Shown here in pieces: positions 1-16,107 of a stretch of DNA of 26,681 nucleotides (the first letter of the stretch is position 1; every line of letters begins with the position of its first letter). Position numbers and translations under genes: made by a program. The stretch comes from a virus (Duplodnaviria; Heunggongvirae; Uroviricota; Caudoviricetes). The notes below the pieces were generated by a model. That model searched no databases. It was not told where the DNA came from and saw only the letters and a list, made by a program, of their open reading frames with translations. The stretch lies in the IMG/VR virus record IMGVR_UViG_2718217859_000002. One strand, 5' to 3'.

Positions 1-621
1 ATGAAAATCCCTTTTAAGTCACCGGCCTTTAATGAGGAGGCATTCAATTGTCCGTTTTGCATGGCATATGCTCAACAGGATTGGTCTGGGTTGAGAGATA
101 AGTACGGAGCACTTAAAGAAGTTTCTCTTTCTAAATGCCGCAATTGCAGCCGGATTGCATATTGGTATGACAAGCGAATGATTGTCCCTCAAGCGAGTGG
201 GATTGAGCCTCCTAATACAGATATGCCTGCTGATTGTGTTGCCGATTACATGGAAGCAAGAAATATTTTCAATCTTTCACCTAAAGGTTCTGCTGCAATC
301 CTTCGTCTTTGCTTACAAAAATTGATGGTGCATCTCGGTTTAGAGGGAGACAAGATCAATGACGATATTGCAACTTTAGTTCAAAAAGGTTTGCCAGAAG
401 AGATTCAACAAGCGTTGGATATCTGTCGTGTTGTGGGTAATAACGCGGTGCATCCTGGTGAAATAAACATTGATGACTCTCCGGAAATTGCAGCTTCACT
501 TTTTGGATTGATAAATTTGATTGTTGAAGAAAGAATCACACGACCACAGAAAGTAGCGAAAATGTACGCGAATCTTCCCGCGGGAGCTAAAGCCGCTATC
601 GAAAGGAGAGATGCCAAATAA
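1..621 (+). CDS. Zn-ribbon plus DUF4145-like domain protein (206 aa)
   Basis: ORF from ATG at window position 1 (upstream not visible, could extend). N-terminal CxxC...CxxC; C-terminal region with [14 protein letters not shown] motif resembling DUF4145 as I recall it. Stop overlaps ATG of next ORF (TAATG). Confidence 0.55.
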
Positions 622-1040
622 TGCCTGGGATTTTAGCAAGCACAGCTACTGCTGTAGGTATCATTGACAAAGCTGTAGGTATTGCAAAGAAGCTCGCTGA
701 TGATGGCGGCGAACTTGATAAAGCAACGCTTAAACTTGAGCTTGCTAACCTCATGAGCGAACTTGCAAGTGTGAAGATGGAAGTAATCACAACCCAAGCA
801 CTTCTTTTTGAGGCTGAACAGAAAAATAAGCAGCTTGAAGATCAGCTAAAGGATAAGCACACCTTCACTTTCAAAGATGGACTTTACTGGAAAGAAGGCG
901 ATGAAACAGCCTACTGTCCCAAATGCTTTGAAGTTGATAAGGTGCAAACACACATGGTTTTTTCGCGTGCCGTTGGTCAATACTCCGCGAGTTGGTATTG
1001 CATTAATTGCAAAAACAGCATTTATCCAAAATCCCGTTAA
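621..1040 (+). CDS. coiled-coil protein with C-terminal CxxC...CxxC zinc ribbon (139 aa)
   Basis: Translationally coupled to upstream ORF; heptad-like K/E/L-rich middle; CPKC...CINC at C-terminus. Confidence 0.5.
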   Translation: MPGILASTATAVGIIDKAVGIAKKLADDGGELDKATLKLELANLMSELASVKMEVITTQALLFEAEQKNKQLEDQLKDKHTFTFKDGLYWKEGDETAYCPKCFEVDKVQTHMVFSRAVGQYSASWYCINCKNSIYPKSR

Positions 1041-1045
1041 AATCG

Positions 1046-1261
1046 TTATTCTTTGGCGGAAGTGTCAAATGTCTTTGCATAAGGGCATTTCCCCTTAGTT
1101 ACGTAAGTGAACAGATAATTGCTGTTCTGATACGTGCACAGCGTTTTTCCATTCTCCGTCTGTTCTTCCTGTGGGTTGACCATTGTTATCTGTCCGGCAT
1201 TCGATAGGGCAGGCAATAGCGCCAACGTCAGAACAAATAAGCATTTAATTTGGATCACCAT
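1046..1261 (-). CDS. small secreted Cys-containing protein (71 aa)
   Basis: Hydrophobic N-terminus ending ALSNA/GQ (signal-peptide-like); ATG overlaps stop of the upstream recombinase ORF (ATGGTGA). Confidence 0.4.
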   Translation of the reverse strand: MVIQIKCLFVLTLALLPALSNAGQITMVNPQEEQTENGKTLCTYQNSNYLFTYVTKGKCPYAKTFDTSAKE

Positions 1262-1833
1262 TCTAAAGAAAACTCCTCTGCTAAATCATCCTGCACATCC
1301 TGACCATACCCGATGTAATACATAGTAGAGCGCGGGTCTGTCTGTCCCAGGAAATGGGCTATTGTCTCTATAGCTACCCCTGCATCAAACATCACACGGC
1401 CCCGACTTTTACGTGGCGTATGGCATCCCACATTAGAGAATCCGGCTCTACGTCCCATTTTCCCAAATTCAGTGAATACCGTGTTACGGGTTACGGCTTC
1501 GCCTTTACTGCGTAATGTGCCAGCACTGAAAATAAAATCTGTAGCTACAGGCATCTTCGTTTGCTCTGCCTTGCGTTGTGCCACCACTGACAACATGGCG
1601 GGGGTAACTTTTGGCCTTACTACGTTTCCGGTTTTCTCCTGCTTTATCTTCAAATGAGATTGCCCCTCAACATCCTGATATTTTAGCTTGAGTACGTCAG
1701 AGACACGCAACCCGCTTTCATACATAAACACCCATAAGCAATAAAACAGGTTGGTTTTACTATTGCGCTGTAGCTCTGCTGCTACTGTTTTTACCTCGTC
1801 TACATTCTTGAGGGCTTGGCTAATACCTTTCAT
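1255..1833 (-). CDS. small tyrosine recombinase (phage integrase fold, about 192 aa)
   Basis: C-terminal catalytic-like residues (GLRVSD, CHTPRKSRG, STMYYIGY). ATG at 1833 has an AAGGAG SD 9 nt upstream; the longer ORF to 1929 lacks one. Confidence 0.6.
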   Translation of the reverse strand: MKGISQALKNVDEVKTVAAELQRNSKTNLFYCLWVFMYESGLRVSDVLKLKYQDVEGQSHLKIKQEKTGNVVRPKVTPAMLSVVAQRKAEQTKMPVATDFIFSAGTLRSKGEAVTRNTVFTEFGKMGRRAGFSNVGCHTPRKSRGRVMFDAGVAIETIAHFLGQTDPRSTMYYIGYGQDVQDDLAEEFSLEW

Positions 1834-1930
1834 CTTTATACTCTCCTTATTCGTTTCAATGAAAGTAGTTTTGATCATAAAACGATCATTTTCAATATGT
1901 TGCACGATACGTTTTATGGTTGAGAGCACT

Positions 1931-2017
1931 AAATGATCAAAAATGATTAAAGGGCTATTAAAAGGTGATTAAGACTGATTAAAAGGTATTAAAGGCGATT
2001 AAAACCGATTTAATTTA
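1931..2017. repeat. iteron-like array, about 7 copies of [G/T]ATTAAA(A)GG at 10-11 bp spacing
   Basis: Direct reading: tgattaaaggg, tattaaaagg, tgattaagac, tgattaaaagg, tattaaagg, cgattaaaacc, gatttaattt. Confidence 0.6.
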
Positions 2018-2243
2018 GGTGCGTCCGTCACCATCGTTGAACACAAAGATCAAGCCTCCCGATCTGATGCAGGCACAAATATGAAATATCTTATTGATTT
2101 ATAAGTAAATTTATTTTATTTAAGCTGTTCACAAATGATTTGTCTTGTCAAGAAATTTATTTTCGGCAGATGAAAAATAGCCAATAAATAGCGATAAATG
2201 GTCTATATATGCCTGAGTATATAAAGATCAGTAGGTTACAGAA

Positions 2244-2262
2244 TACACTTTGCTAAAGTGTA
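2244..2262. promoter_or_regulatory. perfect 8-bp-arm palindrome TACACTTT-gct-AAAGTGTA (operator-like)
   Basis: Inverted repeat read directly. Confidence 0.4.
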
Positions 2263-2647
2263 TCGAATCTGGGTTGTATTGCATTATAAGTGATAATAAT
2301 TCTTATTATTGAATTGTATGACAAATGATTATTCTCTTTGAGATGTGCACGAGTGAACATTCGTTCAACAAATGATAGAACGTTTATTGAGCAACAATTT
2401 TGCAGTGATGCGCTATATGCCGCATTACATAAGGCTTTGCTGATGATAATGTAAAAGTGAAGAAAGTAAGAATTGCACTTTGAATCTACCTTTCATTGCA
2501 TTTTTTAGTAGGGAATTACACGGAATAAGCTATGAATATTCTATGATTTACACGAGATATTCTTGCTGTTTAATTTCGGCTTTGGAGATCAGGCATTCGC
2601 AAGAATACGCTAATGCGTTGCCTGAAAAGCCATTGCACATAATAGAG

Positions 2648-2971
2648 GTGAGCGTATAGCGAACTATCAATGTGATCATTGCACGAATGATAATGAGTGG
2701 ATATAGATTCTATATATCGTTAGATTGTAGTTTGATAGTTAATGTGTAATGTAGATTGTATGAGCGTATAGCGAATGTTAGTTAGATCAACAACAAACTA
2801 ACCTTTAAATCTCTTTTATCTTCTCATAGATATGGCTATGCGTAGCAACCGAAGGTTAGCCATTAATCTATGCAGCCGTAAGGCTGTTTTGCATGTAATA
2901 GTTGTTTGTTGTTGGTAGTCGTTAGACAGTTACCAATTTATAGATCAGAGATAGATGTGAGCGTATAGCGA
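2648..2971. repeat. three dispersed copies of GAGCGTATAGCGA (2648-2662, 2761-2774, 2957-2971)
   Basis: Exact 13-14 nt direct repeats in an ORF-free AT-rich region. Confidence 0.6.
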
Positions 2972-3065
2972 TACACTAATCATAACAATATCTTCTTACT
3001 TTTTAGTTAGTTAGTTGTTAGTAGGTTATTGTTATGCGCGCTATTAGCGCATGTATAAAGGTATC

Positions 3066-3296
3066 ATTTTTATCTAAAGGGCTTTAGACATTTTTGATAC
3101 CTTTTTCATCTCTAAAAAAGTGTAATTTTTATCTAAAGGGGCTTTAGACATTTTTTACACCTTTTTCTGTGCAAGACACTTACCAGTGTGCACAATACTT
3201 ATGCTTTTCTAAAGCCGGGAATTTTTAAGTTTGATTGATCAATTGTTAACTTTAAAAGTTACTTTTAACAATCACTTAGACGATCTAAAGCCGCAA
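3066..3296. promoter_or_regulatory. operator cluster: two 40-bp direct repeats each with palindrome TCTAAAG(G)GGCTTTAGA (3073-3088, 3132-3148) plus TCTAAAG half-sites near 3208 and 3286
   Basis: Read directly; lies upstream of the plus-strand operon starting at 3520. Confidence 0.55.
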
Positions 3297-3437
3297 TTAA
3301 CATAATATAAGTTGACATGCAAGCACTTTTTACCATATAGTGCGGCCCCCTATCTATAAATCACACATTTTACCACTTGTCAATACCATAAATAACCTTA
3401 TAAAACAGGTGCTTAGTTTAGTATTGATAAATATTTA

Positions 3438-3466
3438 TTGACTAATACTATAAGATGGTGTATATT
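3438..3466 (+). promoter_or_regulatory. sigma70-like promoter TTGACT-N17-TATATT
   Basis: Hexamers at 3438-3443 and 3461-3466, about 55 nt upstream of the 3520 start; AGGAGG SD at 3507-3512. Confidence 0.45.
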
Positions 3467-3519
3467 AGCATTAGGGAATTGCATTCCGTAGTAACCAACA
3501 ACAACCAGGAGGTAAATAA

Positions 3520-3750
3520 TTGCGATGGTTTGACACTGAGCAAGTCTACATTGCCCTGAAATGTGGGGAAGTGAAACGCCACACAATAGCCAGCAATATG
3601 GGGCAATGCGTTACCCGTGGAGACGAGAAGCGTGCAAAGATGTTTCGTGATGCTCTTACACGGTATGACAGAGAACGCGCGATCATTGATGCGCAGAATG
3701 TGCCAGGGCGTAAGAAACGTGCTGGACGTAAATCACAATTAATCAACTAA
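3520..3750 (+). CDS. hypothetical basic protein (76 aa), TTG start
   Basis: AGGAGG 7 nt upstream of TTG; basic C-terminus (RKKRAGRK). Confidence 0.45.
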   Translation: MRWFDTEQVYIALKCGEVKRHTIASNMGQCVTRGDEKRAKMFRDALTRYDRERAIIDAQNVPGRKKRAGRKSQLIN

Positions 3751-3770
3751 CAAATAAAGAAAGGTGCTTT

Positions 3771-3932
3771 ATGGATATTCGATTCAATCCAGAAGTATTT
3801 GCAGAATTACGCACGATGGCAACACAACGAGGTATTAGTATTCCCGCGTTAGTTAACGTCATACTTAAAGAAAAAATCATCCTACATCAAGAGGAAAAAT
3901 ATGATAAAGACGATCAAACGAAAAATAGTTAA
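3771..3932 (+). CDS. ribbon-helix-helix (Arc/CopG-like) DNA-binding protein (53 aa)
   Basis: Below ORF-track size cutoff; translated by hand: MDIRFNPEVFAELRTMATQRGISIPALVNVILKEKI... fits a strand-helix-turn-helix pattern. AAGGTG SD upstream. 3' end overlaps next gene in another frame. Confidence 0.4.
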   Translation: MDIRFNPEVFAELRTMATQRGISIPALVNVILKEKIILHQEEKYDKDDQTKNS

Positions 3933-5385
3933 TAGCATTAATCCCGTTTACCTTGTAGATTCAATTTGCGGCTCAGGAAAGAGTCACCGCCTTATAGAAT
4001 ATATACTCGGCCTTCAAGATTCATCTGAAGCTATCCCGCAACGTGTTCTAATAGCCGTTCCTACGCATGAATTAGCCACAGAGACGCGTAATAAGATGTT
4101 AGACGCGGGAATACATGGTTATCATGTTAAAGTCGATAGCGGGGCTGTTTTAGCCCTTAAACAAACACTATCAGAATCCTTTGATTATCCGGTCGTTATT
4201 ACCACGCATCAGGCACTACAGGTTTTTTGTGAGAGAGCAACCTTTGATAGTGAGATGCAAAAACTCCTGTATCCCTTTCAAGTTTTCATTGATGAGATTC
4301 CGGCAGCTTGGCACGGCGATCACGCTACAGTTTTACATAGTGACTCTGTAACGGATAACTTCCCGTTTATGCAGTGGATGGAAGAGAGAGACGGATTATT
4401 ATTCCTTAAGTCTGACAATGAGAACGACCTTTACAAGTATTACCATGAACGCCACGCCGGATCGGATAGCCTGAAAGCGGTTATCTATGCTGTGCTGAAC
4501 GGTAGCGGCTTGCTTTATGGGGAAACAGATAAAGGGTACAGCTTCTTTGCGCAGACAGCTAACCCTGTGATCAATTGTGCAATGTGGTCTGAACGTCTAA
4601 CCATTATGGGGGCGGGTGTTAGCCGATCTGAATGGCGTTATGTAGCTGAGAACGTGGCTAAGGTGGAATGTATGCCAGCTCCTGATCATCTACTACCGGA
4701 CAACGACCGCAGAGAACATAAGAACACGCCTGTTAAACTGGTATCTGTGCTAAAGCCAGGAGTAAGAGCGACGCTTACGCAATTACAGGAAGTTTTTAAC
4801 AACCATCTACAGACGATTGCCCTTACTATGGGAAGTCGGTTTATCTTTGCAACGAACAACGACAAAGGGATCTGTAACTTCAAGACTATTGCACTCGATA
4901 GCCTGGAGGATAACGGGAAAGGAAAAGCGGTAAGCATGGCAAGCTACGGGCTGAACGTATACCAGAGCTACCACGCCGCCGCTTTCCTGGGGTGTGCTAA
5001 CCTCAATGCTACAGATAACAACCGATGGGCGCAATGGCTTAATTTCTCCGGTTATGACGCTGAGGCGGTGTTACGCCTTAAGGTTGAAGCAATGACCTAT
5101 GAGCGTTGCTACCAGTTTATAAGCCGCACAAGCATTCGTGATAGTTCCTGCAAAGAGGCTTTAACGTTTATCGTGCCTGATACGCAGTGTGCTGAATATA
5201 TCAAGCGTTGGTATCTTCCACAGGCTGAGATCACAACGTTAGGCATCGAGAAGGAAAGGAAGAAAGAGAAGGGCGCTAATACAAAGGCAGCTATTCAGGA
5301 ACTGAAAGCTAAAGGCATGAAGCAAAAAGCTGTAGCAGAGGCGTTAGGCTTAGGGATTGCAACGGTTAAACGTAACTGGAAATGA
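3901..5385 (+). CDS. P-loop NTPase, helicase-like (replication-associated?) with C-terminal HTH (494 aa)
   Basis: Walker A CGSGKSH near N-terminus, PTHELA (helicase motif Ia-like), TTHQAL, Walker B VFIDEIP; C-terminal KAVAEALGLGIATVKRN HTH. GAGGA SD upstream. Function inferred from motifs only. Confidence 0.55.
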   Translation: MIKTIKRKIVNSINPVYLVDSICGSGKSHRLIEYILGLQDSSEAIPQRVLIAVPTHELATETRNKMLDAGIHGYHVKVDSGAVLALKQTLSESFDYPVVITTHQALQVFCERATFDSEMQKLLYPFQVFIDEIPAAWHGDHATVLHSDSVTDNFPFMQWMEERDGLLFLKSDNENDLYKYYHERHAGSDSLKAVIYAVLNGSGLLYGETDKGYSFFAQTANPVINCAMWSERLTIMGAGVSRSEWRYVAENVAKVECMPAPDHLLPDNDRREHKNTPVKLVSVLKPGVRATLTQLQEVFNNHLQTIALTMGSRFIFATNNDKGICNFKTIALDSLEDNGKGKAVSMASYGLNVYQSYHAAAFLGCANLNATDNNRWAQWLNFSGYDAEAVLRLKVEAMTYERCYQFISRTSIRDSSCKEALTFIVPDTQCAEYIKRWYLPQAEITTLGIEKERKKEKGANTKAAIQELKAKGMKQKAVAEALGLGIATVKRNWK

Positions 5386-5404
5386 TCTACAACGGTGCAC
5401 ACAG

Positions 5405-5429
5405 AAAGGGGCAAATCAGCCCCTTTTTT
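5405..5429 (+). terminator. rho-independent terminator after helicase-like gene
   Basis: AAAGGGGC-aaatca-GCCCCTTT followed by a T run. Confidence 0.6.
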
Positions 5430-5588
5430 ATTGCCTGTAGTAAATAGCACGAATTGCTAAAGAAAAACTATTGACTATCTATAAACTTTATGATACTCAT
5501 AAGTATTGAGGTGCATACAACCTCAAAAGTAACGTATATAGAGTATCCCTTTATACATATATCATACAACAACCACAAGGAAAAGCAA

Positions 5589-5774
5589 ATGAAATATTTT
5601 TCAGTTTTAGATGTGCTGATGGCACTGATTGAAGGTCGAGTAAGCCGAAACCGGATTCTACAGAACCGTAACGCAGCACGCCGCAGCGGTTATCACGATC
5701 GTGAGGCTCTATTCACCGAAGCCCTGCAAAAGTTCGACCAGATTCGCAAACGTGAGAAGGAAGGGCAGCTATGA
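5589..5774 (+). CDS. hypothetical small protein (61 aa)
   Basis: ATG with AAGGAA SD; the track ORF from 5490 has no SD. Confidence 0.4.
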   Translation: MKYFSVLDVLMALIEGRVSRNRILQNRNAARRSGYHDREALFTEALQKFDQIRKREKEGQL

Positions 5775-6028
5775 AACATCATTTAAGCATTGGTAAGCAC
5801 GAATACGAGATCACGGAAAGCGGATACACACTGGCAAAACAGATCGCTGATAGCAATTATGAGCTACCCGCAATTATCAGCTTTCAGGGGCTACCCCATA
5901 GCAAGGAACACACACAGCACTGGTTAAATCACTTAAGCCATTTCGGGGTGATTCAGTATGAAGCTGTGAATAGTCAGACGTTCCGTTTGCTTGAGATAAA
6001 CCCGTTTGAATTGTGGGTGACGCTGTGA
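5771..6028 (+). CDS. hypothetical protein (85 aa)
   Basis: ATGA overlap with upstream ORF. Confidence 0.45.
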   Translation: MKHHLSIGKHEYEITESGYTLAKQIADSNYELPAIISFQGLPHSKEHTQHWLNHLSHFGVIQYEAVNSQTFRLLEINPFELWVTL

Positions 6029-6231
6029 TCATATTCGATAGCGAATTTTCACAAGAAATCTTTCTGCAATATTTACGGGAAAGAACGGGAATGATTCTGT
6101 TTGATTCTGAGTTTTCCGGTGTGGTAGGTGAGCAATTTTTATATGCTCTTCTCGATAGCCTAAGTAAACAAGGCTTATTGCAATATACAAAAACTCATAT
6201 GAAAGCATTTAGAATCGACTCTGTAGCTTAA
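6013..6231 (+). CDS. hypothetical protein with internal tandem repeat (72 aa), GTG start
   Basis: Protein-level duplication IIFDSEFSQEIFLQYL / ILFDSEFSGVVGEQFLYAL. Confidence 0.35.
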   Translation: MGDAVIIFDSEFSQEIFLQYLRERTGMILFDSEFSGVVGEQFLYALLDSLSKQGLLQYTKTHMKAFRIDSVA

Positions 6232-6269
6232 AACAAACAACTATCAAACATCTTGAAGGGTGGAAAACA

Positions 6270-6371
6270 ATGGAAAGCTTAATATTTTTCTTAGTATTCA
6301 TGATCGCTTCCTTTTTTAACACTGCAAGAAGAAAACCAAAACGAAGGGGAAGCAATGAGCAAGCAAAAAGG
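6270..6371 (+). CDS. 33-aa hydrophobic peptide (single TM helix plus basic tail)
   Basis: Hand-translated: MESLIFFLVFMIASFFNTARRKPKRRGSNEQAKR; GGTGGA SD-like upstream. Below track cutoff. Confidence 0.25.
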
Positions 6372-6735
6372 TAAGAAAAACGTAATAACAACTATTGGCG
6401 AAGCATGTGATCAGTATGCGTTAAACAATCCTCGCAAATATAACTACGAGCATGATGCACAACCAGGCGAAGAATTGATCTTTATACTTGAAGAACCAAG
6501 CCCAGAATTAACAGACGAAGAATTATCACTCATTCAAAGTATGGACGGTGTTTATTTTAATCCACGTCCACGCAAAACAACGGTTATAGATTCCAGTCTT
6601 CTAAAAAGATGGCAGTGTTTGGGGTTTTCAGACATGGCCCATTTTAGGGGGTATATGTCAATGAATAGCCTTCAATATGCAGGCGTGCGAGAAACCGAAT
6701 TACTTCTGCTTGATAAAGTAAACATTGACGATTAA
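6355..6735 (+). CDS. hypothetical protein (126 aa)
   Basis: GAAGGGGAAG SD-like upstream of ATG. Confidence 0.5.
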   Translation: MSKQKGKKNVITTIGEACDQYALNNPRKYNYEHDAQPGEELIFILEEPSPELTDEELSLIQSMDGVYFNPRPRKTTVIDSSLLKRWQCLGFSDMAHFRGYMSMNSLQYAGVRETELLLLDKVNIDD

Positions 6736-6776
6736 CAGCGTTTGCTGAATATAAACCTTAACAAAAGGAAAATAAA

Positions 6777-6998
6777 ATGATTAACAAAGCAATTTTAGAG
6801 ACAACCACTTTTCACGATCTTAAACTTCTTTCTGAATGCTTCATAAGCCTGATTGAACGAGCACAGGAAGAAAACGATCTCGGTTTACTCGATGATATTA
6901 TAGACAACATTGCAACTTATAAAATCCCGCTCACCATTGCTATGAAGAAAGCACGCGAAGCACAACAACAATTAGAACAATTAGAGGAAGTGGCATAA
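6777..6998 (+). CDS. hypothetical protein (73 aa)
   Basis: ORF with AAGGAAAA upstream. Confidence 0.45.
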   Translation: MINKAILETTTFHDLKLLSECFISLIERAQEENDLGLLDDIIDNIATYKIPLTIAMKKAREAQQQLEQLEEVA

Positions 6999-7306
6999 TG
7001 AGCACTACACACAACGTAACTATTCAGATGATGGATCTGATTATTTCTTTACAGAAGGCAGTTAATTCGGCTCTGACGTTTCCAACTGAGCTAACCATTG
7101 CACAGGCTGTTATTAACCTGGAATCGACGCGGGAAGCACTTGAACTACTTATTGCAGCGTGCGAACAATCCGAAGGTGCACAGGTTGAAGCTGACGAATT
7201 GTCTAATCTGATCATCGTTATTCATGACACCACTGAAATCATGAAAGAAGCGGTAGCAGACCTGCAACCACTCATTAATGAACTAATCGACAAGGCTAAC
7301 AACTAA
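6998..7306 (+). CDS. hypothetical acidic protein (102 aa)
   Basis: ATAATG overlap coupling with upstream ORF. Confidence 0.45.
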   Translation: MSTTHNVTIQMMDLIISLQKAVNSALTFPTELTIAQAVINLESTREALELLIAACEQSEGAQVEADELSNLIIVIHDTTEIMKEAVADLQPLINELIDKANN

Positions 7307-7515
7307 TGACAAAAACTAAACGTGTGCGCCTTCTGGCGCTCACAGAAGAAGGGAAAGCGGGTAATTGTTTCACAGTAGGTAAAGTGTATACCGGCTTACT
7401 CGACACTTACACCCGCCTGATGCACGTAACCGATGATAACGGTAACGATCAAACAATCGTTTTAGATGGTAATTGCGTATTTGGTGAATGGGAACTGACA
7501 ACCGAAAAGAATTGA
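7306..7515 (+). CDS. hypothetical protein (69 aa)
   Basis: TAATG overlap coupling. Confidence 0.45.
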   Translation: MTKTKRVRLLALTEEGKAGNCFTVGKVYTGLLDTYTRLMHVTDDNGNDQTIVLDGNCVFGEWELTTEKN

Positions 7516-7534
7516 AAAAACTTTGATTTAACTA

Positions 7535-7563
7535 TTGACTTTATAACAGAAATGTTATATAAT
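7535..7563 (+). promoter_or_regulatory. near-consensus sigma70 promoter TTGACT-N17-TATAAT
   Basis: Hexamers at 7535-7540 and 7558-7563 with a 17-nt spacer. Confidence 0.5.
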
Positions 7564-7569
7564 AAGAAG

Positions 7570-7810
7570 TGTAGGGGAAAGAATCTAAAACAGGTGTTAG
7601 CTGGCGTTAATCCTTCTCCCGATTTTAATCCTACACGAAAGCGGGGTAGACCTCAAGGGGTCGCGCCCTATCTAACCTGCCTCGCTTTCCCTTTACCAGT
7701 TTTTTTAGAAATTGTTTCCCTCGTTAATAGTTTCATATATTTTCCTTATTGCTTTATCAAAATTGTGTCTTAAGAATGCAGGGGCTACGGATTTGGCCCC
7801 TCATCTTTTT
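7570..7810 (+). ncRNA. candidate small non-coding RNA (promoter to terminator, no convincing ORF or SD)
   Basis: Predicted start about 7570; GC stem pairing 7634-7645 with 7681-7691 followed by a T run near 7700; second terminator at 7781-7810. Confidence 0.3.
7781..7810 (+). terminator. rho-independent terminator
   Basis: GGGGC-loop-GCCCC followed by TCATCTTTTT. Confidence 0.55.
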
Positions 7811-7957
7811 AACCAACTGCGAAGCATGAAACACTTTCTAAAAACACTGTTTACAGTGTCTATAAACCCCGTATAAACAAATAACGGTGTATATTGTTTC
7901 TTGACAACAATTCTACTAAGCCAAAAGCTGAATATGTTTTTTGTTTGTTGGTGTTTA

Positions 7958-8146
7958 TTAAGGTGCCAATCTTAGAACGCTGAAAGCGTGGATGATCCCC
8001 GAAATCATCTCGGCACCGCCTCCTATTAAAATGAGAATCCAAAAGGTTTGAAAGTTAATAGTAGTTCCTAAAAGTCTGATCGATGCATCCACATTGTGAA
8101 AGACAGCGATTAGCCATCGCACGAATAACAGGTTTATAGATTCCAA
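7958..8146 (-). CDS. small hydrophobic protein (62 aa), TTG start
   Basis: Perfect AGGAGG SD 8 nt upstream of TTG (minus strand); hydrophobic sequence with GGG turn. Confidence 0.3.
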   Translation of the reverse strand: MESINLLFVRWLIAVFHNVDASIRLLGTTINFQTFWILILIGGGAEMISGIIHAFSVLRLAP

Positions 8147-8310
8147 AGGGGGCGACCTCCTAAGCGCCTACTCCCTGTAAGCCTGTTATTCAACCCCTCA
8201 AGGGTATATAACAATAAGCAATCTTATTCTTATATGTCCTCCTCTTTAAGTTCATATAACTGCGATTTAGTAACACTCTATAACATCCTTCAAATGTTGT
8301 ATTCATAAAG

Positions 8311-8340
8311 CCGGAAGCTTTCCCCTTCCGGTTTTATTTT
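8311..8340 (+). terminator. rho-independent terminator just upstream of structural operon
   Basis: CCGGAAG-ctttccc-CTTCCGG followed by TTTTATTTT. Confidence 0.6.
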
Positions 8341-8382
8341 GTCAGCACTAAACAAGAATGTTAGAAAAAAGGTAAAGCAACA

Positions 8383-8598
8383 ATGCAAAATCTCATTCTA
8401 AAGAATGGTAATGAAGAATTGATTATCACTAATGAAGCATTCAACGCTACGGCTTATATGTTGGGAATCACTCCCACAGAATTGAAAAAACATTGTGATA
8501 AGCTTTTTAAGTCTGCTGATGAACAGAAACCTACTATGCAGGATCTGATTAAAGCAAAAGCAGAACAAATCAAACAATCCAAAAAAGGAAACAATTAA
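8383..8598 (+). CDS. hypothetical small protein (71 aa)
   Basis: AAGGTAAAG SD upstream; first gene of structural cluster. Confidence 0.45.
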   Translation: MQNLILKNGNEELIITNEAFNATAYMLGITPTELKKHCDKLFKSADEQKPTMQDLIKAKAEQIKQSKKGNN

Positions 8599-8601
8599 TT
8601 T

Positions 8602-8973
8602 ATGGCTATTATTAATATGAGCGATCTGTTTCCAGTTCGCAAATCATTTACCGATATCGTTTCATATGCAACTGATGAGTTCGGTTGTGTGCAATCTTTT
8701 ACCGTTGATCTGGCGGTTGATGTTGAATGTGGCGATCTGATTACCAGTGACGGCGCTGAATATGTAAGCGGCGGCGATGTTCTTGTCGTTGTGTCTGATG
8801 CGGTATCCGCTGGCGACGCTAAAACCGTTAACGTGCTGCGTAGCAATGCCGGACTGGTTTGCATCAAATCCGATGCTCTGAATGTTGAAGGCGCTGTGAA
8901 AGAAGCCGCTATTGCTGCCCTGGCTGCAAAAGGTTTCCAGATGGCTGGCTTTAATACTGTATTCACATCTTAA
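8602..8973 (+). CDS. putative head decoration-like / minor virion protein (123 aa)
   Basis: Beta-rich V/D/A/G/S composition; sits immediately upstream of the capsid-like gene (decoration-then-capsid order as in lambda D-E). Homology not verified. Confidence 0.4.
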   Translation: MAIINMSDLFPVRKSFTDIVSYATDEFGCVQSFTVDLAVDVECGDLITSDGAEYVSGGDVLVVVSDAVSAGDAKTVNVLRSNAGLVCIKSDALNVEGAVKEAAIAALAAKGFQMAGFNTVFTS

Positions 8974-8991
8974 TATAAAGGAATAAAAATA

Positions 8992-10020
8992 ATGATTATT
9001 GGTAATGAATCCGTCGATCTGGCTCCGCTGTTTAGTCTGCACGACTCTCGCAACTTCCTGTTAACTTCTCTCGACTTTACTGATCCGGTAGGTGTGAGTT
9101 CTCATAAAGTGGCTGTTAGCCAACTGGTGGAAACTAACGAATCTCTGTTCAACAAAGAAACCTCTCGTTTCTCTTCTGAACATAACGTGACTAAACGTGA
9201 ACAGGGTAAAGAATTTTTAGTAGAGATCCCCTACTTCCTGCGTGAAGATATGATTAAGCCGCAAGACGTGCAAGGCAAACGTAAGCCAGGCGCTACCGTT
9301 GAAGAAACTCTGACAGATATCTACGCGGAATATGTTGCTAAGCACCACATTGCTTTCCAGCGTACTAAAGAGAGCGTGCTGGCTGCTTCCCTGTTTAGTG
9401 GTCGCACCTACACCCCTAAAACTGACGATGTGCTGATCCAGTGGGGCGATCTGTTCAGTGCTGTTCCGATGACTGCAACCATCGACGCATCAAGCACCAC
9501 ACCTTCTATGGTGTTCCAGCAATTCGATCAGATGCATACAGACGTTATCACTAAAGCACAAAGCCAGGCGGCTGCTGTAGAGCGTATCGTTGTATTCTGT
9601 AAACCTGCCGCTTTCAACGCTATCCGTTACAGTGCTGGCATGGTTAACGCGTTCCAGTATGCAAGCCCTACCGACGACGCAAACATCGTTTATAGCGTGC
9701 GCTCCCTGCTGCCAGGTGTGACTACCTTCACTATTCCAGGGACTAATATCGATATCGTCAAAGTTACCGATCCGCTGCTGCTGGCGCATATGACTTCTGA
9801 TGCGGTGGCTGTTCCGAAGTTCGCTAAAGGCTCTAACGTCTATCAGAACATTTTCGGCGCTCCGTCTTCAACGTTCGACCTGCTGAATTCTGGATCGGCT
9901 GAATATTACAGCTATGCATTTAGCCCAGCACGTAACGACGCTGTAAACGTAGTTACCGAGAATAGCCAGATGGTTGTAAACCACGGCGTAGGCTTCACTG
10001 TACAGATCACAGTAGCGTAA
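8992..10020 (+). CDS. putative major capsid protein (342 aa; lambda gpE-like size and architecture)
   Basis: Size, position and a 30-aa helix-prone segment (TLTDIYAEYVAKHHIAFQRTKESVLAASLF) compatible with an HK97-fold spine helix; strong SD. Inference, not search-based. Confidence 0.5.
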   Translation: MIIGNESVDLAPLFSLHDSRNFLLTSLDFTDPVGVSSHKVAVSQLVETNESLFNKETSRFSSEHNVTKREQGKEFLVEIPYFLREDMIKPQDVQGKRKPGATVEETLTDIYAEYVAKHHIAFQRTKESVLAASLFSGRTYTPKTDDVLIQWGDLFSAVPMTATIDASSTTPSMVFQQFDQMHTDVITKAQSQAAAVERIVVFCKPAAFNAIRYSAGMVNAFQYASPTDDANIVYSVRSLLPGVTTFTIPGTNIDIVKVTDPLLLAHMTSDAVAVPKFAKGSNVYQNIFGAPSSTFDLLNSGSAEYYSYAFSPARNDAVNVVTENSQMVVNHGVGFTVQITVA

Positions 10021-10070
10021 TAAAGCGTTAATAGTCGTTTCCTGTGCGACTGGAAATAAAACAGGCAATA

Positions 10071-10137
10071 AGGGCAAAAGGGATTAACTAACCTGTAAAG
10101 CAAATACAGTAACGGATCTCTTTGCCCTTTTTGTTTT
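10071..10137 (+). terminator. structured terminator after capsid-like gene
   Basis: 9-bp stem AGGGCAAAG/CTTTGCCCT enclosing a 39-nt loop with nested CTGTA/TACAG hairpin, then TTTTGTTTT. Confidence 0.45.
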
Positions 10138-10170
10138 CTACCGTTTATTAAATATTGTGAGAGAAAAACC

Positions 10171-10362
10171 ATGAACACACAAAACAACAATCCCGTTGAA
10201 ATCTTGAAAGCTGTTTCCACCTTACCGGAAGATATTCTGAATATCTCTCAAGTATGCAAGTTTTTAGGGATCTCTAATACCGCTGTACGTCAAAGAATCT
10301 TTGCTACTGGCTGTTCCGCTATGGAAGCAGTGCAATATTACGTAGCAAAACAAAATAAGTAA
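10171..10362 (+). CDS. small HTH DNA-binding protein (63 aa)
   Basis: ISQVCKFLGISNTAVRQRIF helix-turn-helix pattern. Confidence 0.45.
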   Translation: MNTQNNNPVEILKAVSTLPEDILNISQVCKFLGISNTAVRQRIFATGCSAMEAVQYYVAKQNK

Positions 10363-10380
10363 AAGATAAAGGAAAATATT

Positions 10381-12222
10381 ATGGATCTGAATATCTCAAC
10401 CTTAACAAACAAGGTTGTATTTAAGGTGGATTTTGCATCATTACAGAAAGCACGCGATGCAGGTAAGAAATTCCAGAAAGAAATGGAAAACCTAACCAAT
10501 CCAACATTGAAAGGGAAGAAGGCTAAACGAGCTATAGACGATGCTAACGATCTGGTAAAAGCCCGTAAAGCTACACAGGCTAAAGCTGATGCCAAAGCGT
10601 CAGACAAGCAAGCTCAAACCGATAAGAAGAACGCTGATAAGGTGGCAAAGGCAGAAGCTAAAGCGAAGGCTAAAGCCGCTATAGCTGCCGATAAACAGAT
10701 CCGCGCTAAAGCAACGATAGCAGAGAAGGCAGAGATTAAACGCCAGCAAGCTTTTAGACAGCTTGAAGGCATCAAGAAAGGGCGTATGGGTGACGGTATG
10801 GACTCCGCCCAATACTACAAAACATTACAATACATCAAACAACAAACGGCAGCTTACGAGAAAGGCGCTATTAGTCAGGCTAAGATGAATCACCTGATCC
10901 GTGATCGCATCACGTTAGAACGCCGTGCGGCTGCTGTTAAAGCTCGCCAGGTGGCGGCTGATGGCGGTAAATATCCACATATGGCTAAACAGCTTAAAGG
11001 TGGTCATATAGGCGGTGGTGTAGGTGCAATGGTGGGCGGTGCTGCTCTCACTGCTGCTACTCTCGGCGGTGCTGCGATATTCAATACCGTAACCGATCAG
11101 GCAAGCAAGATCACAGACACTAACCGCAAGGCAAAAGCTGTTAACGTCAACACTAACGCCCTGTTAGCACTCAACCAGTACGGCTTAGAGCACGGGGTAG
11201 ATAGTTCCGTTGATCAACGTCAAGATAACCTTAAAGACGTTCAAGAACGTTTAGGCGAGACGATAGGGAATACTAAGTGGGATGCTAAAAAGGGTCGCTG
11301 GGCGGGGGGTAACGGTGCCGTTGATAACATCCTTAACAAATATGGTTGGAGTCCTGAACAGGTTAAAGGTTTCCAAACTGATCCATTAGGTTTCCTGGGT
11401 GCTGTAGTGAAAGAAGGCGAACGCCGTGGACTCTCTGACCAGGAGCAGGGTCACATGCTCGAAGACCTTGGAAATGATTTACAATATTTCCGTGGGGCTT
11501 TCAGTCGTAACGGTGAAGAGTTAAATAAAACTCTCGTTAAGATGCAACAAGCCAACGCCACCTATACACAAGCGGATCTTGACGCTGCTGAACGTCTGCA
11601 AGCTGTACAGGCTAATATGAATATGGCCTGGGAAGGTAGTAAGAAAGCTATCATGACGGGATTCGGTGAAGAGTTCGACGCTCAAGCTGGTGAAGAGTGG
11701 GCGCAAATGTTGAAAGATCTCAATCCTCTGTTTAAAGAACTTGGAAGCTCAACGGCTGAAATGATGAGTGCCTTTGCTGGTGCTGTATCGTGGCTTACTG
11801 CTGCATACCAGAATATAAATCCAGAGAACAAACATGAAAACCTTGATTCGTCCGGTATGTATTATAAGGACTCGTTTGTAGGTGGTATGGTTGATTGGGG
11901 TCGTAGTGCTTTAGGCTTATCGCCTATCCCTGGCACGGAAGACAAGCCAACAACTGGCGGAACTGCAATTCAGAACTATGCAAGCCCGTCCGAGAACGTG
12001 CAATCCCTGAAACAGAACGTTAGCCGTGATCTGAACACTACCCCATCTATGACGTATGCGCCAAGCATTGTCGTAAACGTGCCAGAAAGTAAGGTTGATG
12101 TGAATATCGCCCCTGATGGCTCTCAGCTTGGATCATACCTCGACTACAAAGTGGGAAGTATCCAACAAGATTTTGAACGTAGTTTCACGTTGGCGGCTCT
12201 GTCTGGGCAAGCACCAAGTTAA
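10381..12222 (+). CDS. large coiled-coil protein with Gly-rich hydrophobic segment (613 aa), tape-measure/pilot-like
   Basis: K/A/E-rich N-terminal coiled coil; GGHIGGGVGAMVGGAALTAATLGGAAIF segment; AAGGAAAA SD. Confidence 0.55.
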   Translation: MDLNISTLTNKVVFKVDFASLQKARDAGKKFQKEMENLTNPTLKGKKAKRAIDDANDLVKARKATQAKADAKASDKQAQTDKKNADKVAKAEAKAKAKAAIAADKQIRAKATIAEKAEIKRQQAFRQLEGIKKGRMGDGMDSAQYYKTLQYIKQQTAAYEKGAISQAKMNHLIRDRITLERRAAAVKARQVAADGGKYPHMAKQLKGGHIGGGVGAMVGGAALTAATLGGAAIFNTVTDQASKITDTNRKAKAVNVNTNALLALNQYGLEHGVDSSVDQRQDNLKDVQERLGETIGNTKWDAKKGRWAGGNGAVDNILNKYGWSPEQVKGFQTDPLGFLGAVVKEGERRGLSDQEQGHMLEDLGNDLQYFRGAFSRNGEELNKTLVKMQQANATYTQADLDAAERLQAVQANMNMAWEGSKKAIMTGFGEEFDAQAGEEWAQMLKDLNPLFKELGSSTAEMMSAFAGAVSWLTAAYQNINPENKHENLDSSGMYYKDSFVGGMVDWGRSALGLSPIPGTEDKPTTGGTAIQNYASPSENVQSLKQNVSRDLNTTPSMTYAPSIVVNVPESKVDVNIAPDGSQLGSYLDYKVGSIQQDFERSFTLAALSGQAPS

Positions 12223-12280
12223 TGATAAAGAGAATGTTTAATCACAATCTAAAACACTCTTATAAGGAATTAAGCATATA

Positions 12281-12314
12281 AGAGGCTCCCATTACAAGGA
12301 AGCCTCTTTATTGC
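12281..12314. terminator. hairpin terminator between convergent genes
   Basis: AGAGGCTCC-attacaa-GGAAGCCTCT then TTTATTG. Confidence 0.5.
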
Positions 12315-12329
12315 GCCTATGGCGTTGTT

Positions 12330-13550
12330 TTAAGCCTTAAAATCAATATTTAATTCATATCTTACTAATTCTACATATTCAGCTAATTCTTGAATGCTTG
12401 CCCCTTGTGAGTAGGTGCGAAAGGCTTCTGTTTTAGCTATCTGCTCTGTATGTCCGGTAATGGCTCCGATCCGCTGTTCAGGCACTCCTGCACGATCAAG
12501 ACAAGTGATAAACATCCCGCGCAAGCTGTGAAAGCATTGTCTATTTGTAGCGATTGGCAAGACGCTACGACGTAAACGTGAGAATGCTTGAGAATAGAAC
12601 GGGCCTTTCTTACCGTCGATTCTTTTTACTTTGTTCGAGTGAGGGAACAAATATTCACCATAATTATGATTTAAATATTCATCGACAATAATCGATAGTC
12701 TCGAATGTATCGGAACGTGTCTGATCCCTGCTTTAGTCTTACTTTTGCTGATATAAAAACAGCGTATTCCTTCCACAGTTACAACCTCTGACTTTTTCAG
12801 AGTTGCCAGTTCGTCTAATCTGCATCCTGAAAACAAGCCCATTAAAATAATATTTCTGATCTCCGGCTCCGCTGCATCAAGTAGCTTTTGCATTTGTTCA
12901 GGTGTAAACGGTTGATAACTCTCGATTGTGCGACGTGCTTCGAGGTTATGACCGTGAAAAGGGTTACTGTCTGGTATTCCGTCATAACGGCGTTTAGCAA
13001 ATTCATAGAGCGATCCTAAGCATGTAAGCCAGTTTTGACGAGATTGATCGGCTGCTCCTCGTTGCTTCTGGTCATCTAAGAATACTGTTACAAGCCGTCT
13101 GCCTATTTTCTCAATATGAATATCATCTTTCTGAATGCTTTGTAAAAATAGCTCAACGGCCCTTGCTGATTTCTGTAGTGTTGAGTATGAACGACGCTCT
13201 CTGTAGCATTCGGCGTATTCGTCACGTATTAGGCACAGGGAAGGCGGTGCATAACCGCGTTTTACAGCTCTTTGCGTGTTTTTATTGGCACTTGCCTCTG
13301 AATGTAAGGATTCAATAGCTTTTTGTAACCTCCTTTCGGGGTTATCAGGATTATGTTTCCGCTTTAGTTCCTCCCATTCTAATAACAGATGGTTTCTGAA
13401 TCTTCTCGCCTCATTCAGATCTCGTGTAGATGTGCTTTTTCTCCACAACTTGTAAGGGTAAAGATGGCGTAAGTATTTAGGAACAAAAATCTGAAACATC
13501 CAGATCCCATCTTTTCTCTTAAATAAGTATGCTTGGCTCTTGATCGACAC
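12330..13550 (-). CDS. int: tyrosine integrase of element 1 (406 aa), GTG start
   Basis: C-terminal HSLRGMFITCLDRAGV...GHT...Y catalytic-like motifs; N-terminal YLFKRKDGIWMF arm-binding-like hairpin; GAGGA SD. Confidence 0.85.
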   Translation of the reverse strand: MSIKSQAYLFKRKDGIWMFQIFVPKYLRHLYPYKLWRKSTSTRDLNEARRFRNHLLLEWEELKRKHNPDNPERRLQKAIESLHSEASANKNTQRAVKRGYAPPSLCLIRDEYAECYRERRSYSTLQKSARAVELFLQSIQKDDIHIEKIGRRLVTVFLDDQKQRGAADQSRQNWLTCLGSLYEFAKRRYDGIPDSNPFHGHNLEARRTIESYQPFTPEQMQKLLDAAEPEIRNIILMGLFSGCRLDELATLKKSEVVTVEGIRCFYISKSKTKAGIRHVPIHSRLSIIVDEYLNHNYGEYLFPHSNKVKRIDGKKGPFYSQAFSRLRRSVLPIATNRQCFHSLRGMFITCLDRAGVPEQRIGAITGHTEQIAKTEAFRTYSQGASIQELAEYVELVRYELNIDFKA

Positions 13551-13635
13551 GATAATGATCCTCTATTATCACGTAATCAGTTACCTATGATTGATCACAA
13601 AATCTTTATTTTACAGCAGGTTATTGTGGGTTTCC

Positions 13636-13657
13636 TCGATTCCCTTCGCCCGCTCCA
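13636..13657 (+). other. att core: 22-nt fragment matching the 3' end of tRNA-Gly(CCC) (TCGATTCCCTTCGCCCGCTCCA)
   Basis: Ends in CCA; acceptor 3' strand CGCCCGC pairs with the GCGGGCG 5' end of tRNA-Gly; matches my recollection of E. coli glyU. No 5' tRNA body present. Confidence 0.6.
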
Positions 13658-13821
13658 AACAAACATTTCTCAACGTCTACTAAAGTCCATCAAACCCACG
13701 AATATCAAGCCTTCCAGGCATTTTCATAGTTTATTAACGTCTACTCACAACTACCAGAATCTACACACAGAAGTGTATAGTAATGCGTATAGGACAAAAT
13801 TTATTTTTTGGAGCTATACAC

Positions 13822-15036
13822 ATGCTGCTTTCAGACCTTGCCATCAGGCGCGCGAAGCCGAAAGAAAAGGCTTATACACTCAATGACGGTAACGGGCTTT
13901 CGTTGCTCATTGAGCCGAACGGTTCGAAAGGGTGGCGACTGCGCTACAGGTTTGCAGGAAAGCCCAAAATGTTGTCGTTGGGTGTGTACCCTGATGTGTC
14001 TCTGTCTGATGCCAGGGCGGCAAGGGATGAGGCTAAAAGGCTTCTTGCTGGTGGTATAAATCCAAGTGAGGCCAGAAAAGCCCAAAAGCGAGAACAGGCG
14101 AGCAAATTTGGCAATACTTTTGAGGGTATTGCTCGCGAATGGTACGAAAAGCGGATCGACAGGTGGTCATCGTCATACGCCGAGGAAATGATCGAGACGT
14201 TTGAAAAAGATGTTTTTCCGTACATTGGCGGTAGGCCGATCGCAGAAATTAAGCCGATGGAATTGCTGGCGGTTCTTTCCCGTCTTAATGACCGTGGTGC
14301 GACTGAAAAATTGCGTAAGGTTCGCCAGCGATGCGGCGAGGTGTTCCGGTACGCAATCATCACCGGACGCGCCGAATATAATCCAGCCCCTGACCTGGTG
14401 AGCGCATTTGCTCCACATAAAAAAGAGCATTACGCCTATTTGAAGGCCGACGAACTGCCGGAATTTTTCCGCGTTTTTAATACGTACACCGGAAGCCAGA
14501 TCGTCAAACTGGCAATGCGGCTATTAATTCTGACAGGTGTCAGACCCGGGGAATTACGGCAGGCAGAATGGCAGGAGATCGATTTTGATAATCGTTTGTG
14601 GGAAGTGCCTAAAGAACGAATGAAGATGCGCCGTCCGCATTGTGTGCCATTACCAGAACAGGCGATAAAAATACTGGAGCAGTTAAAAAACATGACAGGC
14701 CAGTATCAGTTTATTTTCCCCGGTCGTATTCACCACAGTAAGCCAATGAGTGAAATGGCGATGAATGTGCTCATTCGTCGTATCGGCTATGCCGGGCGCG
14801 TTACTGGTCATGGATTCCGGCACACCATGAGCACCATTTTGCATGAGCAGGGCTATAACACCGCGTGGATAGAGACGCAGCTCGCACACGTCGATAAAAA
14901 CTCAATTCGTGGCACATACAACCATGCGCAATATCTGGATGGTCGCCGGGAGATGCTCCAGTGGTATGCCGACTATATGGATTCGCTCGAGCATGGCGGA
15001 AATGTGGTGCATGGTGAGTTCGGAAAATGCGGGTGA
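13822..15036 (+). CDS. int: P4-type tyrosine integrase of element 2 (405 aa)
   Basis: N-terminal LSDLAIRRAKPKEKAYTLNDGNGLSLLIEPNGSKGWRLRYRF arm-binding domain typical of P4/CP4-57-type integrases; C-terminal HGFRHT...Y; GGAG SD. Track ORF begins earlier at 13783 without SD. Confidence 0.9.
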   Translation: MLLSDLAIRRAKPKEKAYTLNDGNGLSLLIEPNGSKGWRLRYRFAGKPKMLSLGVYPDVSLSDARAARDEAKRLLAGGINPSEARKAQKREQASKFGNTFEGIAREWYEKRIDRWSSSYAEEMIETFEKDVFPYIGGRPIAEIKPMELLAVLSRLNDRGATEKLRKVRQRCGEVFRYAIITGRAEYNPAPDLVSAFAPHKKEHYAYLKADELPEFFRVFNTYTGSQIVKLAMRLLILTGVRPGELRQAEWQEIDFDNRLWEVPKERMKMRRPHCVPLPEQAIKILEQLKNMTGQYQFIFPGRIHHSKPMSEMAMNVLIRRIGYAGRVTGHGFRHTMSTILHEQGYNTAWIETQLAHVDKNSIRGTYNHAQYLDGRREMLQWYADYMDSLEHGGNVVHGEFGKCG

Positions 15037-15134
15037 CTGGTTGAGTATACAGTAGTAGACTTTGAGCACCTAAAAAGGCTGATGCAAACAGAGCTGGATC
15101 GGCCTTAACATTAGACCGCTTGAAGGGGGAGAAT

Positions 15135-15848: not shown

Positions 15849-16107
15849 ATAGTGGTCGCTATTCCAGAAAAATGGTGGTTTCCTTTCAAAAAAAAGTAAC
15901 CACCAATGCAGATTAAATCGTAAGAACAGTAATTTTTCTTCGTGTTTCACGTCAGCATGATACTTAAAATAGTAAACGCCATTATTAAAAAAAGGTGGAG
16001 CTATTTCACTGAAATGGTATTCGCCATTCATAATGGTAAGCATCTATAAATATCACTTTTCTTAATGCAAGCTATGTACACCTTTATAGACGTTACAAGG
16101 TGAATAT

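Follow-up and report, generated by a model that had tools for sequence, protein, structure and literature searches.

Two small overlapping genes open a stretch of viral DNA of 26,681 nucleotides (IMG/VR record IMGVR_UViG_2718217859_000002; hereafter the window), and the question that they raise is whether they form one defence system or two. A first-pass annotation, made from the sequence alone, had described bases 1-1261 as a translationally coupled pair of zinc-ribbon genes, and had proposed the pair as a candidate defence module. We find that the first gene, ORF1, is a homologue of the validated defence protein PD-T7-4/RAZR and that the second, ORF2, is a remote homologue of a different validated defence protein, Rip1. 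The expectation of defence thus stands for each gene, and that of one cooperating module does not. In our judgement, bases 1-1040 probably encode two autonomous single-protein abortive-infection defences, one RAZR-like and one Rip1-like, arranged as one short operon.

Both genes lie on the plus strand, ORF1 (1..621) encoding a protein of 206 amino acids (aa) and ORF2 (621..1040) one of 139 aa. Their junction (604..623, plus strand) carries a Shine-Dalgarno-like run, AGGAGAG, at 604-610 within the 3' end of ORF1, and the motif TAATG at 619-623, in which the ORF1 stop codon TAA (619-621) and the ORF2 start codon ATG (621-623) overlap by one nucleotide, as had been described. The CxxC motifs reported for both genes are likewise present, two pairs in each: C17-x2-C20 and C46-x2-C49 in ORF1, and C99-x2-C102 and C127-x2-C130 in ORF2. 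The interval 1-1261 also takes in ORF3, a gene on the minus strand that the earlier annotation did not mention.

ORF1 is a homologue of the ring-activated RNase RAZR

PD-T7-4 emerged from a functional selection carried out in E. coli (Vassallo et al. 2022, PMC9519451), and its homologues frequently overlap an integrase gene (PMC9519451). It was later renamed RAZR, for ring-activated zinc-finger RNase (Zhang et al. 2026, PMC13017515). RAZR is one protein, in which a Cys4 zinc ribbon at the N-terminus is joined to a DUF4145 domain, itself a divergent form of HEPN RNase. Its linear oligomers re-form as a 24-mer round phage rings, either a 24-mer Erf-like protein or 12-mer portals, and the ring-assembled protein cuts RNA non-specifically. 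The zinc-finger domain sets phage specificity, and alanine substitution of R146 or H154 in RAZR-Ec leads to loss of defence. Defence proceeds by abortive infection, and RAZR overproduced alone is non-toxic. Expressed alone from its native promoter, each of RAZR-Ec and RAZR-Kv is protective, and RAZR and its trigger were enough to reconstitute the active complex (all PMC13017515).

ORF1 matches this family along nearly its whole length. The PADLOC model for PD-T7-4 (PDLC04109) recognised it with an E-value of 6.3e-90, residues 4-205 falling on model positions 3-208 of 211, and residues 8-205 aligned with positions 7-208 of the solved RAZR chain in PDB 9y9c (E 6.2e-74). The DUF4145-like region suggested by the first pass was borne out by Pfam, where PF13643 covers residues 85-163 (253..489, plus strand) with an E-value of 3.1e-13 and 50 bits, above the cut-off of 23.1. 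Identity to RAZR-Ec is about 58% overall, about 50% in the zinc-finger domain and 62% in the linker plus HEPN domain. The four zinc-ribbon cysteines C17, C20, C46 and C49 (codons in 49..147, plus strand) align with C16, C19, C49 and C52 of the solved chain; the predicted catalytic residues R143 (nucleotides (nt) 427-429) and H151 (nt 451-453), on the same strand, line up with R146 and H154 of RAZR-Ec, and the linker aligns too. A protein identical to ORF1 is recorded as WP_000701124.1, labelled by PGAP as a DUF4145 domain-containing protein. At the level of sequence, ORF1 is a RAZR homologue that carries the zinc-binding and catalytic residues of the family, with a zinc-ribbon domain as its predicted sensor and a DUF4145/HEPN domain as its predicted RNase.

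ORF2 is a remote member of the Rip1 family

The identity of the second gene was less direct. Pfam, searched with ORF2 at E-values up to 1, returned just DMPK_coil, TniQ and LIM, all below their cut-offs, so the family assignment by Pfam that had been proposed for this partner did not succeed. PADLOC gave zero matches, and so did tblastn against 50,697 phage records. The link to Rip1 was obtained through Foldseek, a common PHROG, hhalign and bridging sequences only.

The reference for this comparison is PDB 9oox, in which Rip1 of phage HK446 is bound to the small terminase of T6; the corresponding protein, HK446 gp37, matches the Rip1 chain with an E-value of 2e-106. The sole significant PHROG for ORF2 is phrog_1244 (E 5.4e-7, residues 7-135), and HK446 gp37 falls in it as well, at 2.2e-53. 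Three homologues of ORF2 behave like it, all four hitting phrog_1244 at 5e-7 to 5e-6, over the full length and with no other PHROG. An hmmsearch of the HK446 proteins with the ORF2 profile was non-significant. When the ORF2 family (A1) was compared with the HK446 Rip1 family (A2) by hhalign, the two aligned with 94% probability and an E-value of 1.4e-7 over 123 columns, and both CxxC pairs of ORF2 fell on C121/C124 and C148/C151 of HK446 Rip1. Foldseek, run with the ORF2 model against the PDB, placed the chains 9oox_L and 9oox_M first and second of 422 matches, with 120 aligned columns.

The sequence space between the two families is populated. The ORF2 profile, run against 1.84 billion representatives, recovered 1287 clusters at E-values up to 1e-3, mostly of 130-155 aa and with the same layout, and among the matches listed 81 of 144 not-yet-collected hits also matched the HK446-Rip1 profile. 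The close family of ORF2 comprises 113 clusters at 90% identity; its named members all come from Enterobacterales, and nearly all are annotated as "hypothetical".

The AlphaFold2 model of ORF2, with a mean predicted local distance difference test score of 81, folds helices 2-26 and 31-79 into a hairpin that is followed by a small beta zinc ribbon. The predicted helix 2-26 is rich in Gly, Ala, Ser and Thr and amphipathic, like residues 7-31 of Rip1, with a hydrophobic moment of up to 0.53 for the predicted N-terminal helix against 0.42 in Rip1; helix 31-79 is coiled-coil-like. Conservation is divided along the protein. The first 80 residues have a mean pairwise identity of 79% across genera, and residues 111-139, with a hypervariable insert in the zinc ribbon, have one of 25%.

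Rip1 ("ring interacting pore 1") is described in a review of the work of Patel et al. (Nature 2026, doi 10.1038/s41586-025-10075-1) as a single prophage protein that is non-toxic alone (PMC13434031). According to the same review, its C-terminal half forms a 12-mer that docks on the 11-mer ring of the small terminase, its N-terminal amphipathic helices then build a membrane pore, Pseudomonas phages escape through portal mutations, and most of its relatives, not all, are borne by prophages (PMC13434031). The conserved N-terminus and hypervariable C-terminus of the ORF2 family fit such a split into putative effector and sensor. We therefore propose the predicted helical hairpin (residues 2-79; 624..857, plus strand) as a membrane-active effector part, and the region of C99, C102, C127 and C130 with the hypervariable insert between the pairs (915..1010, plus strand) as a ring-binding sensor. 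Judged by its sequence, ORF2 belongs to the Rip1 superfamily as a remote yet genuine member; by analogy with Rip1, it would form a pore and bind phage rings.

RAZR and the Rip1-like gene are distributed independently

The first-pass annotation treated the two genes as a single module, a view that their distribution does not support. Among 5,426 complete E. coli genomes, a RAZR-like gene is present in 305 and an ORF2 homologue in at most 40. The two stand side by side in 13 genomes, which is 13/305 of those with RAZR and 13/40 of those with ORF2; in the other 292 of the 305 they are not adjacent. Over bases 1-2000, all 13 paired loci share at least 99.8% identity with the window. Four other RAZR loci were examined: in three the gene directly follows or overlaps the gene of a 530-aa integrase, at the same tRNA-Gly, and in one it stands alone near a tRNA-Thr. 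At none of these four did either family profile find a Rip1-like ORF nearby. Three more distant Rip1-like genes whose surroundings were inspected have no DUF4145 neighbour, and one of them lies beside gpD and gpU of P2.

A wider survey covered about 60 loci with an ORF2 homologue, taken from genomes, viral contigs and metagenomes (numbered here with the prefix L), and the immediate upstream genes were clustered. They fell into 16 clusters, a few of which are probably spurious short ORFs. The upstream neighbour was a PDC-S67-like membrane protein at 10 loci, RAZR at 9, an unknown 177-aa protein at 8, a 216-aa protein with an N-terminal membrane helix at 6, a 210-aa protein whose R-x4-H motif hints at HEPN at 4, SieB at 3 and an Abi_C/AbiJ-like HEPN protein at 1. 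In L017, L019 and L059 the nearest real upstream gene lies on the opposite strand. ORF2 homologues thus follow at least 12 unrelated genes, or form a transcription unit of their own.

The boundaries of the exchanged segment are sharp. The upstream flank, which the first pass had recommended inspecting, can be read from L001, a genome with 100% identity to bases 1-2000 of the window: 600 bp before ORF1 stands a tRNA-Gly gene. The mobile-cargo context that had been proposed holds, as both genes lie in an integrative, phage-satellite-like island, at the end that bears the attachment site. Positions 14856-15620 of L001 are exchanged wholesale in L002. The left flank of the slot is conserved to 455 bp past the tRNA, and homology on the right begins exactly at the ATG of ORF2, which makes ORF2 the conserved right flank of a cargo slot. 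The identities of the two genes are decoupled: L032 has a RAZR 91% identical and an ORF2 74-75% identical, and L002 has an ORF2 97% identical and no RAZR. Pairwise identities of RAZR and ORF2 correlate with r = 0.72, a value dominated by near-identical pairs, and for this pattern of co-divergence we lean towards cassette exchange.

The one-nucleotide overlap, which had been taken as a feature of the pair, is present in only five of the nine RAZR-ORF2 loci surveyed; in three the genes are about 50 nt apart, and in one they are separated by 267 nt, the RAZR ORF seemingly being truncated. Spacing follows RAZR clade. The first clade (L001, L032, L006/L051) always has the 1-nt overlap, and the second has the gap of about 50 nt in its three intact loci (L004, L005, L033).

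The best reading of these observations is that RAZR is exchangeable cargo and that the Rip1-like ORF2 is a backbone gene of the island. As a separate observation, several slot families that recur across genera (in L002, L007, L013, L024, L037 and others) are candidate new single-gene defences; they have no counterpart in the window.

Two defences in tandem and the alternatives

Because RAZR and ORF2 are distributed in this way, because RAZR is experimentally self-sufficient, and because Rip1 is reported to act as a single protein, we favour two autonomous defences in tandem. The mechanism proposed for each follows that of its homologue. ORF1 would rest as inactive linear oligomers, and its Cys4 zinc ribbon would bind to phage proteins that assemble into rings, for example portals or Erf-like recombinases. 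Once wrapped round a ring, its HEPN dimers would be positioned to cut RNA non-specifically, halting translation. The variable C-terminal zinc ribbon of ORF2 would dock on a small-terminase or portal ring, and the resulting collar of conserved N-terminal amphipathic helices would form a membrane pore, causing early death of the infected cell. The two genes would be co-transcribed as one short operon.

Several observations weigh against this interpretation. The PDB sequence searches, whether with ORF2 or with its family profile, gave nothing relevant and missed Rip1, identity between ORF2 and the solved Rip1 is about 18%, and the Foldseek scores to 9oox are weak (E 4e-3 and 8e-3, TM score 0.32-0.38, root-mean-square deviation 8-10 A), in a comparison of a monomeric helical-hairpin model with a protomer of an assembled ring. 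A consensus scan of the plus strand upstream of ORF1 in L001 yielded no convincing promoter. In ORF1, two of the five residues with which RAZR-Ec contacts Gp77 are kept (R35 = R32 and E43 = E40); R29 is replaced by Gly, Y31 falls in a 4-residue gap and T41 is replaced by Leu. On the genomic side, RAZR ranks second among the neighbours of ORF2 homologues, two RAZR clades that are about 55% identical to each other recur in the slot, and the 1-nt overlap is retained in L006/L051, where RAZR identity has fallen to 62-63%.

The lost contacts bear on phage range and not on family membership, since the zinc-finger domain is the variable determinant of specificity (PMC13017515). The loop that bears these contacts is 4 residues shorter in ORF1 than in RAZR-Ec, and with two of five contacts kept the ORF1 allele probably has a phage range of its own, different from that of RAZR-Ec.

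The genomic points leave room for the idea that the pairing of RAZR with a Rip1-like gene was selected and is no accident. One class of trigger (portal, small-terminase or Erf-like rings) would then fire both an RNase and a pore; co-transcription and translational coupling would keep the two together, escape by a single mutation would be blocked, and the proteins might even co-assemble on one ring. In a related version, the conserved Rip1-like protein would be aimed at the packaging ring of the island's own helper phage, as part of satellite parasitism. We consider selected pairing unlikely, and keep it in view because the junction is preserved at 62-63% identity, because two RAZR clades recur and because both proteins are expected to be ring-triggered. 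The same evidence would also fit repeated capture by a hotspot.

A distinctly unlikely explanation is that ORF2 is a satellite life-cycle gene, which interferes with or redirects helper packaging by binding small-terminase or portal rings, with RAZR as unrelated cargo. ORF2 is indeed a conserved flank that travels with ORF3, the small recombinase, the helicase and the capsid-like gene of the island, and the island has a major-capsid-like gene and no terminase or portal among the ORFs scanned. The solved relative of ORF2, Rip1, binds a small-terminase ring. There is precedent as well, since the Ppi and Rpp proteins of staphylococcal pathogenicity islands (SaPI) and E. coli phage-inducible islands bind the helper TerS. 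However, a hypervariable C-terminus joined to a near-invariant amphipathic hairpin suits a sensor and killer better than a packaging adaptor, and distant family members occupy ordinary cargo spots of prophages, such as that beside P2 gpD and gpU.

One cooperative two-gene system, in which ORF2 would be an obligate partner of RAZR (a sensor, adaptor or second effector) at a stoichiometry set by translational coupling, is in our view very unlikely. RAZR-Ec and RAZR-Kv protect without a partner and their complex was rebuilt from RAZR and trigger (PMC13017515), and Rip1 is itself a single-protein system according to the review (PMC13434031). What the cooperative model accounts for well is the TAATG overlap with a ribosome-binding site inside ORF1, a junction shared by L032 and L006/L051, where RAZR is down to 62-63% and ORF2 spans 64-75% identity. 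It would also suit the presence of RAZR upstream in 9 of about 60 ORF2 loci, spread over at least four genera and two RAZR clades, and the variable zinc ribbon of both proteins, each expected by homology to bind rings. Against these stand the 292 of 305 RAZR-carrying E. coli genomes without an adjacent ORF2, with nothing Rip1-like at the four such loci inspected, the ORF2 homologues that lie behind many unrelated genes or alone, and the three pairs that have a gap of about 50 nt in place of the overlap.

HEPN RNases are often the toxins of two-gene toxin-antitoxin modules. That common role and the tight coupling of the pair would suit ORF2 as an antitoxin or regulator of a HEPN toxin, and its coiled coil followed by a C4 zinc finger has superficially the layout of a DksA/TraR-like transcription regulator, but both identities are scarcely credible and were dropped: overproduced RAZR is non-toxic and needs no antitoxin (PMC13017515), the majority of RAZR genes lack ORF2, ORF2 has no Pfam match to MNT, DksA/TraR or any antitoxin family beyond sub-threshold coiled-coil noise, and its homology leads to Rip1.

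The island and the remainder of the window

Bases 1-13658 of the window match E. coli EC21GDE043 at 97%, where the element lies between tRNA-Gly and yqeG. This first island, of about 14 kb, encodes a DEAD-box-type helicase, a Phage_cap_E capsid-like protein, a 613-aa protein and, at its far end, a 406-aa integrase; the ORFs scanned included no terminase and no portal. The island is integrative and phage-satellite-like, and is not P4-like. Plasmid and phage collections gave zero DNA matches to bases 1-2000, and the window holds no Rfam family and no tRNA.

Immediately downstream of ORF2, and convergent with it, lies ORF3 (1046..1261, minus strand; 71 aa), which ends 5 nt past the ORF2 stop codon. 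It has a signal-peptide-like N-terminus and two cysteines, is recorded by PGAP as the hypothetical protein WP_000236626.1, and matches phrog_4641 (unknown function; E 8.2e-7). ORF3 overlaps by 7 nt the gene of a small tyrosine recombinase (1255..1929, minus strand), which has 224 aa when read from the first GTG and 192 aa (1255-1833) in PGAP. The recombinase noted by the first pass next to the pair is thus real, with matches to PF00589 (E 1.2e-15) and to the integrase family phrog_216 (E 5.7e-29). Relatives of ORF3 lie downstream of ORF2 homologues at many loci in several genera, and a small recombinase is annotated 3' of ORF2 homologues in L013, L014 and L017. ORF3 and the small recombinase are backbone genes of the island, and ORF3 stands outside the defence pair.

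The mean GC content of E. coli is about 51%. The 42.7% GC of bases 1-1000 is below this, so the description of the pair as lying at an AT-rich left edge held in part; the AT-richest part of the window is 2000-3500 (33-36% GC), and the edge itself is an artefact, the window having been cut so that its first base is that of the ORF1 ATG.

Directly upstream of the small recombinase gene, 1930-3900 is a stretch of about 2 kb that is AT-rich (33-36% GC) and has no convincing ORF. It contains GATTAAA-type direct repeats at 1934-1996, repeats spaced by 60 nt at 3054-3167 and an inverted repeat at 1936-1952 / 3082-3098. The part from about 2356 to 3345 is 95-96% identical in many of 381 matching E. 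coli genomes, with no annotated feature there. The stretch may serve this family of islands as an origin of replication or as a regulatory region. An invertible switch beside the recombinase was considered and set aside, as no inverted copy appeared among the matches listed from the 381 E. coli genomes, in a search not designed for that purpose.

Farther along the island, the 613-aa protein (10381-12222, plus strand) matches phrog_16051, "tail length tape measure protein", with an E-value of 1.4e-65 and no Pfam match. The label may mislead, as there are no other tail genes among the ORFs scanned.

A second mobile element occupies 13783-26681, in tandem after the integrase of the first island; it is absent from L001, where yqeG follows. 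It encodes a P4-type integrase (13783-15036), an AntA-domain protein (16383-17231), a D5-type primase-helicase (19278-21050) and an AlpA-like activator (22267-22554), and ORFs resembling a head protease and a small terminase are also present. Its appearance is that of a phage-inducible chromosomal island (PICI).

The tRNA-Gly next to actS receives two unrelated island families (L009, L010 and L011 as against L001). In one family the 530-aa integrase gene adjoins the tRNA, and in the other the integrase gene lies at the opposite end of the island; in both, a RAZR-like gene is found no more than about 2.5 kb from the tRNA.

Significance

The locus does not reveal a new kind of system. It is not a new two-gene module; it combines a RAZR allele with a new, unannotated Rip1 clade at a defence hotspot of a mobile island. 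What may be novel is the pairing, presumably co-transcribed, of two putative ring-sensing suicide effectors. RAZR and Rip1 were described independently, in back-to-back papers of 2026, as sensors of phage protein rings, and a coupled operon of a RAZR and a Rip1-like gene would offer a natural way to ask if such effectors are stacked to act in synergy or to prevent escape.

A family known so far only as hypothetical proteins gains a testable function, with 113 clusters at 90% identity and a superfamily of about 1,300 clusters at 50% identity, and the Rip1 family is extended from prophages to satellite-like islands. The slot has exact boundaries, and its 177-aa, 216-aa and 210-aa HEPN-like occupants are good candidates for single-gene defences.

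Comparison with known systems

ORF1 shares with RAZR/PD-T7-4 the full-length two-domain layout, the Cys4 ribbon, the conserved linker and the Arg...His dyad of the DUF4145/HEPN domain. The host species is the same, and so is the kind of position, at the end of an integrative element that bears the attachment site; other alleles are even found at this very tRNA-Gly locus. The surroundings differ: the gene that follows and overlaps ORF1 is Rip1-like, and of the four other alleles examined, three come after or overlap an integrase gene. DS-38 is also a single-protein defence that combines a HEPN domain with a zinc finger, but DS-38 and PD-T7-4 align in their HEPN domains only (DefensePredictor preprint, 10.1101/2025.01.08.631726). 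DS-38 is thereby set apart by description, and ORF1 belongs with RAZR and not with DS-38 because its alignment to PD-T7-4/RAZR covers both domains.

ORF2 resembles Rip1 as a small single protein that is predicted to begin with an amphipathic helix rich in Gly and Ala, to continue as a coiled coil and to end in a Cys4 domain. It is shorter (139 aa against 164 aa), about 18% identical, and its close family is confined to Enterobacterales. The genomic setting is different too. In a Pseudomonas prophage Rip1 lies between terminase genes, as stated in the review (PMC13434031), and in HK446 it lies between an anti-restriction gene and N, whereas ORF2 is a backbone gene of a satellite-like island of about 14 kb at tRNA-Gly and not of a prophage.

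The slot as a whole invites comparison with the defence hotspots of satellites and prophages. Rousset et al. are said to have described, in 2022, hotspots of defence genes in P4 and P2, and Fillol-Salom et al. reportedly described PICI-encoded defences in 2022. Like these, the slot has sharp conserved flanks and varied defence-type cargo, and lies near the attachment-site end of a phage-related island. The present island differs in its far-end 406-aa integrase, its DEAD-box helicase, its Phage_cap_E gene and its small second recombinase, and in that one flank of the slot, ORF2, is itself a defence-type gene.

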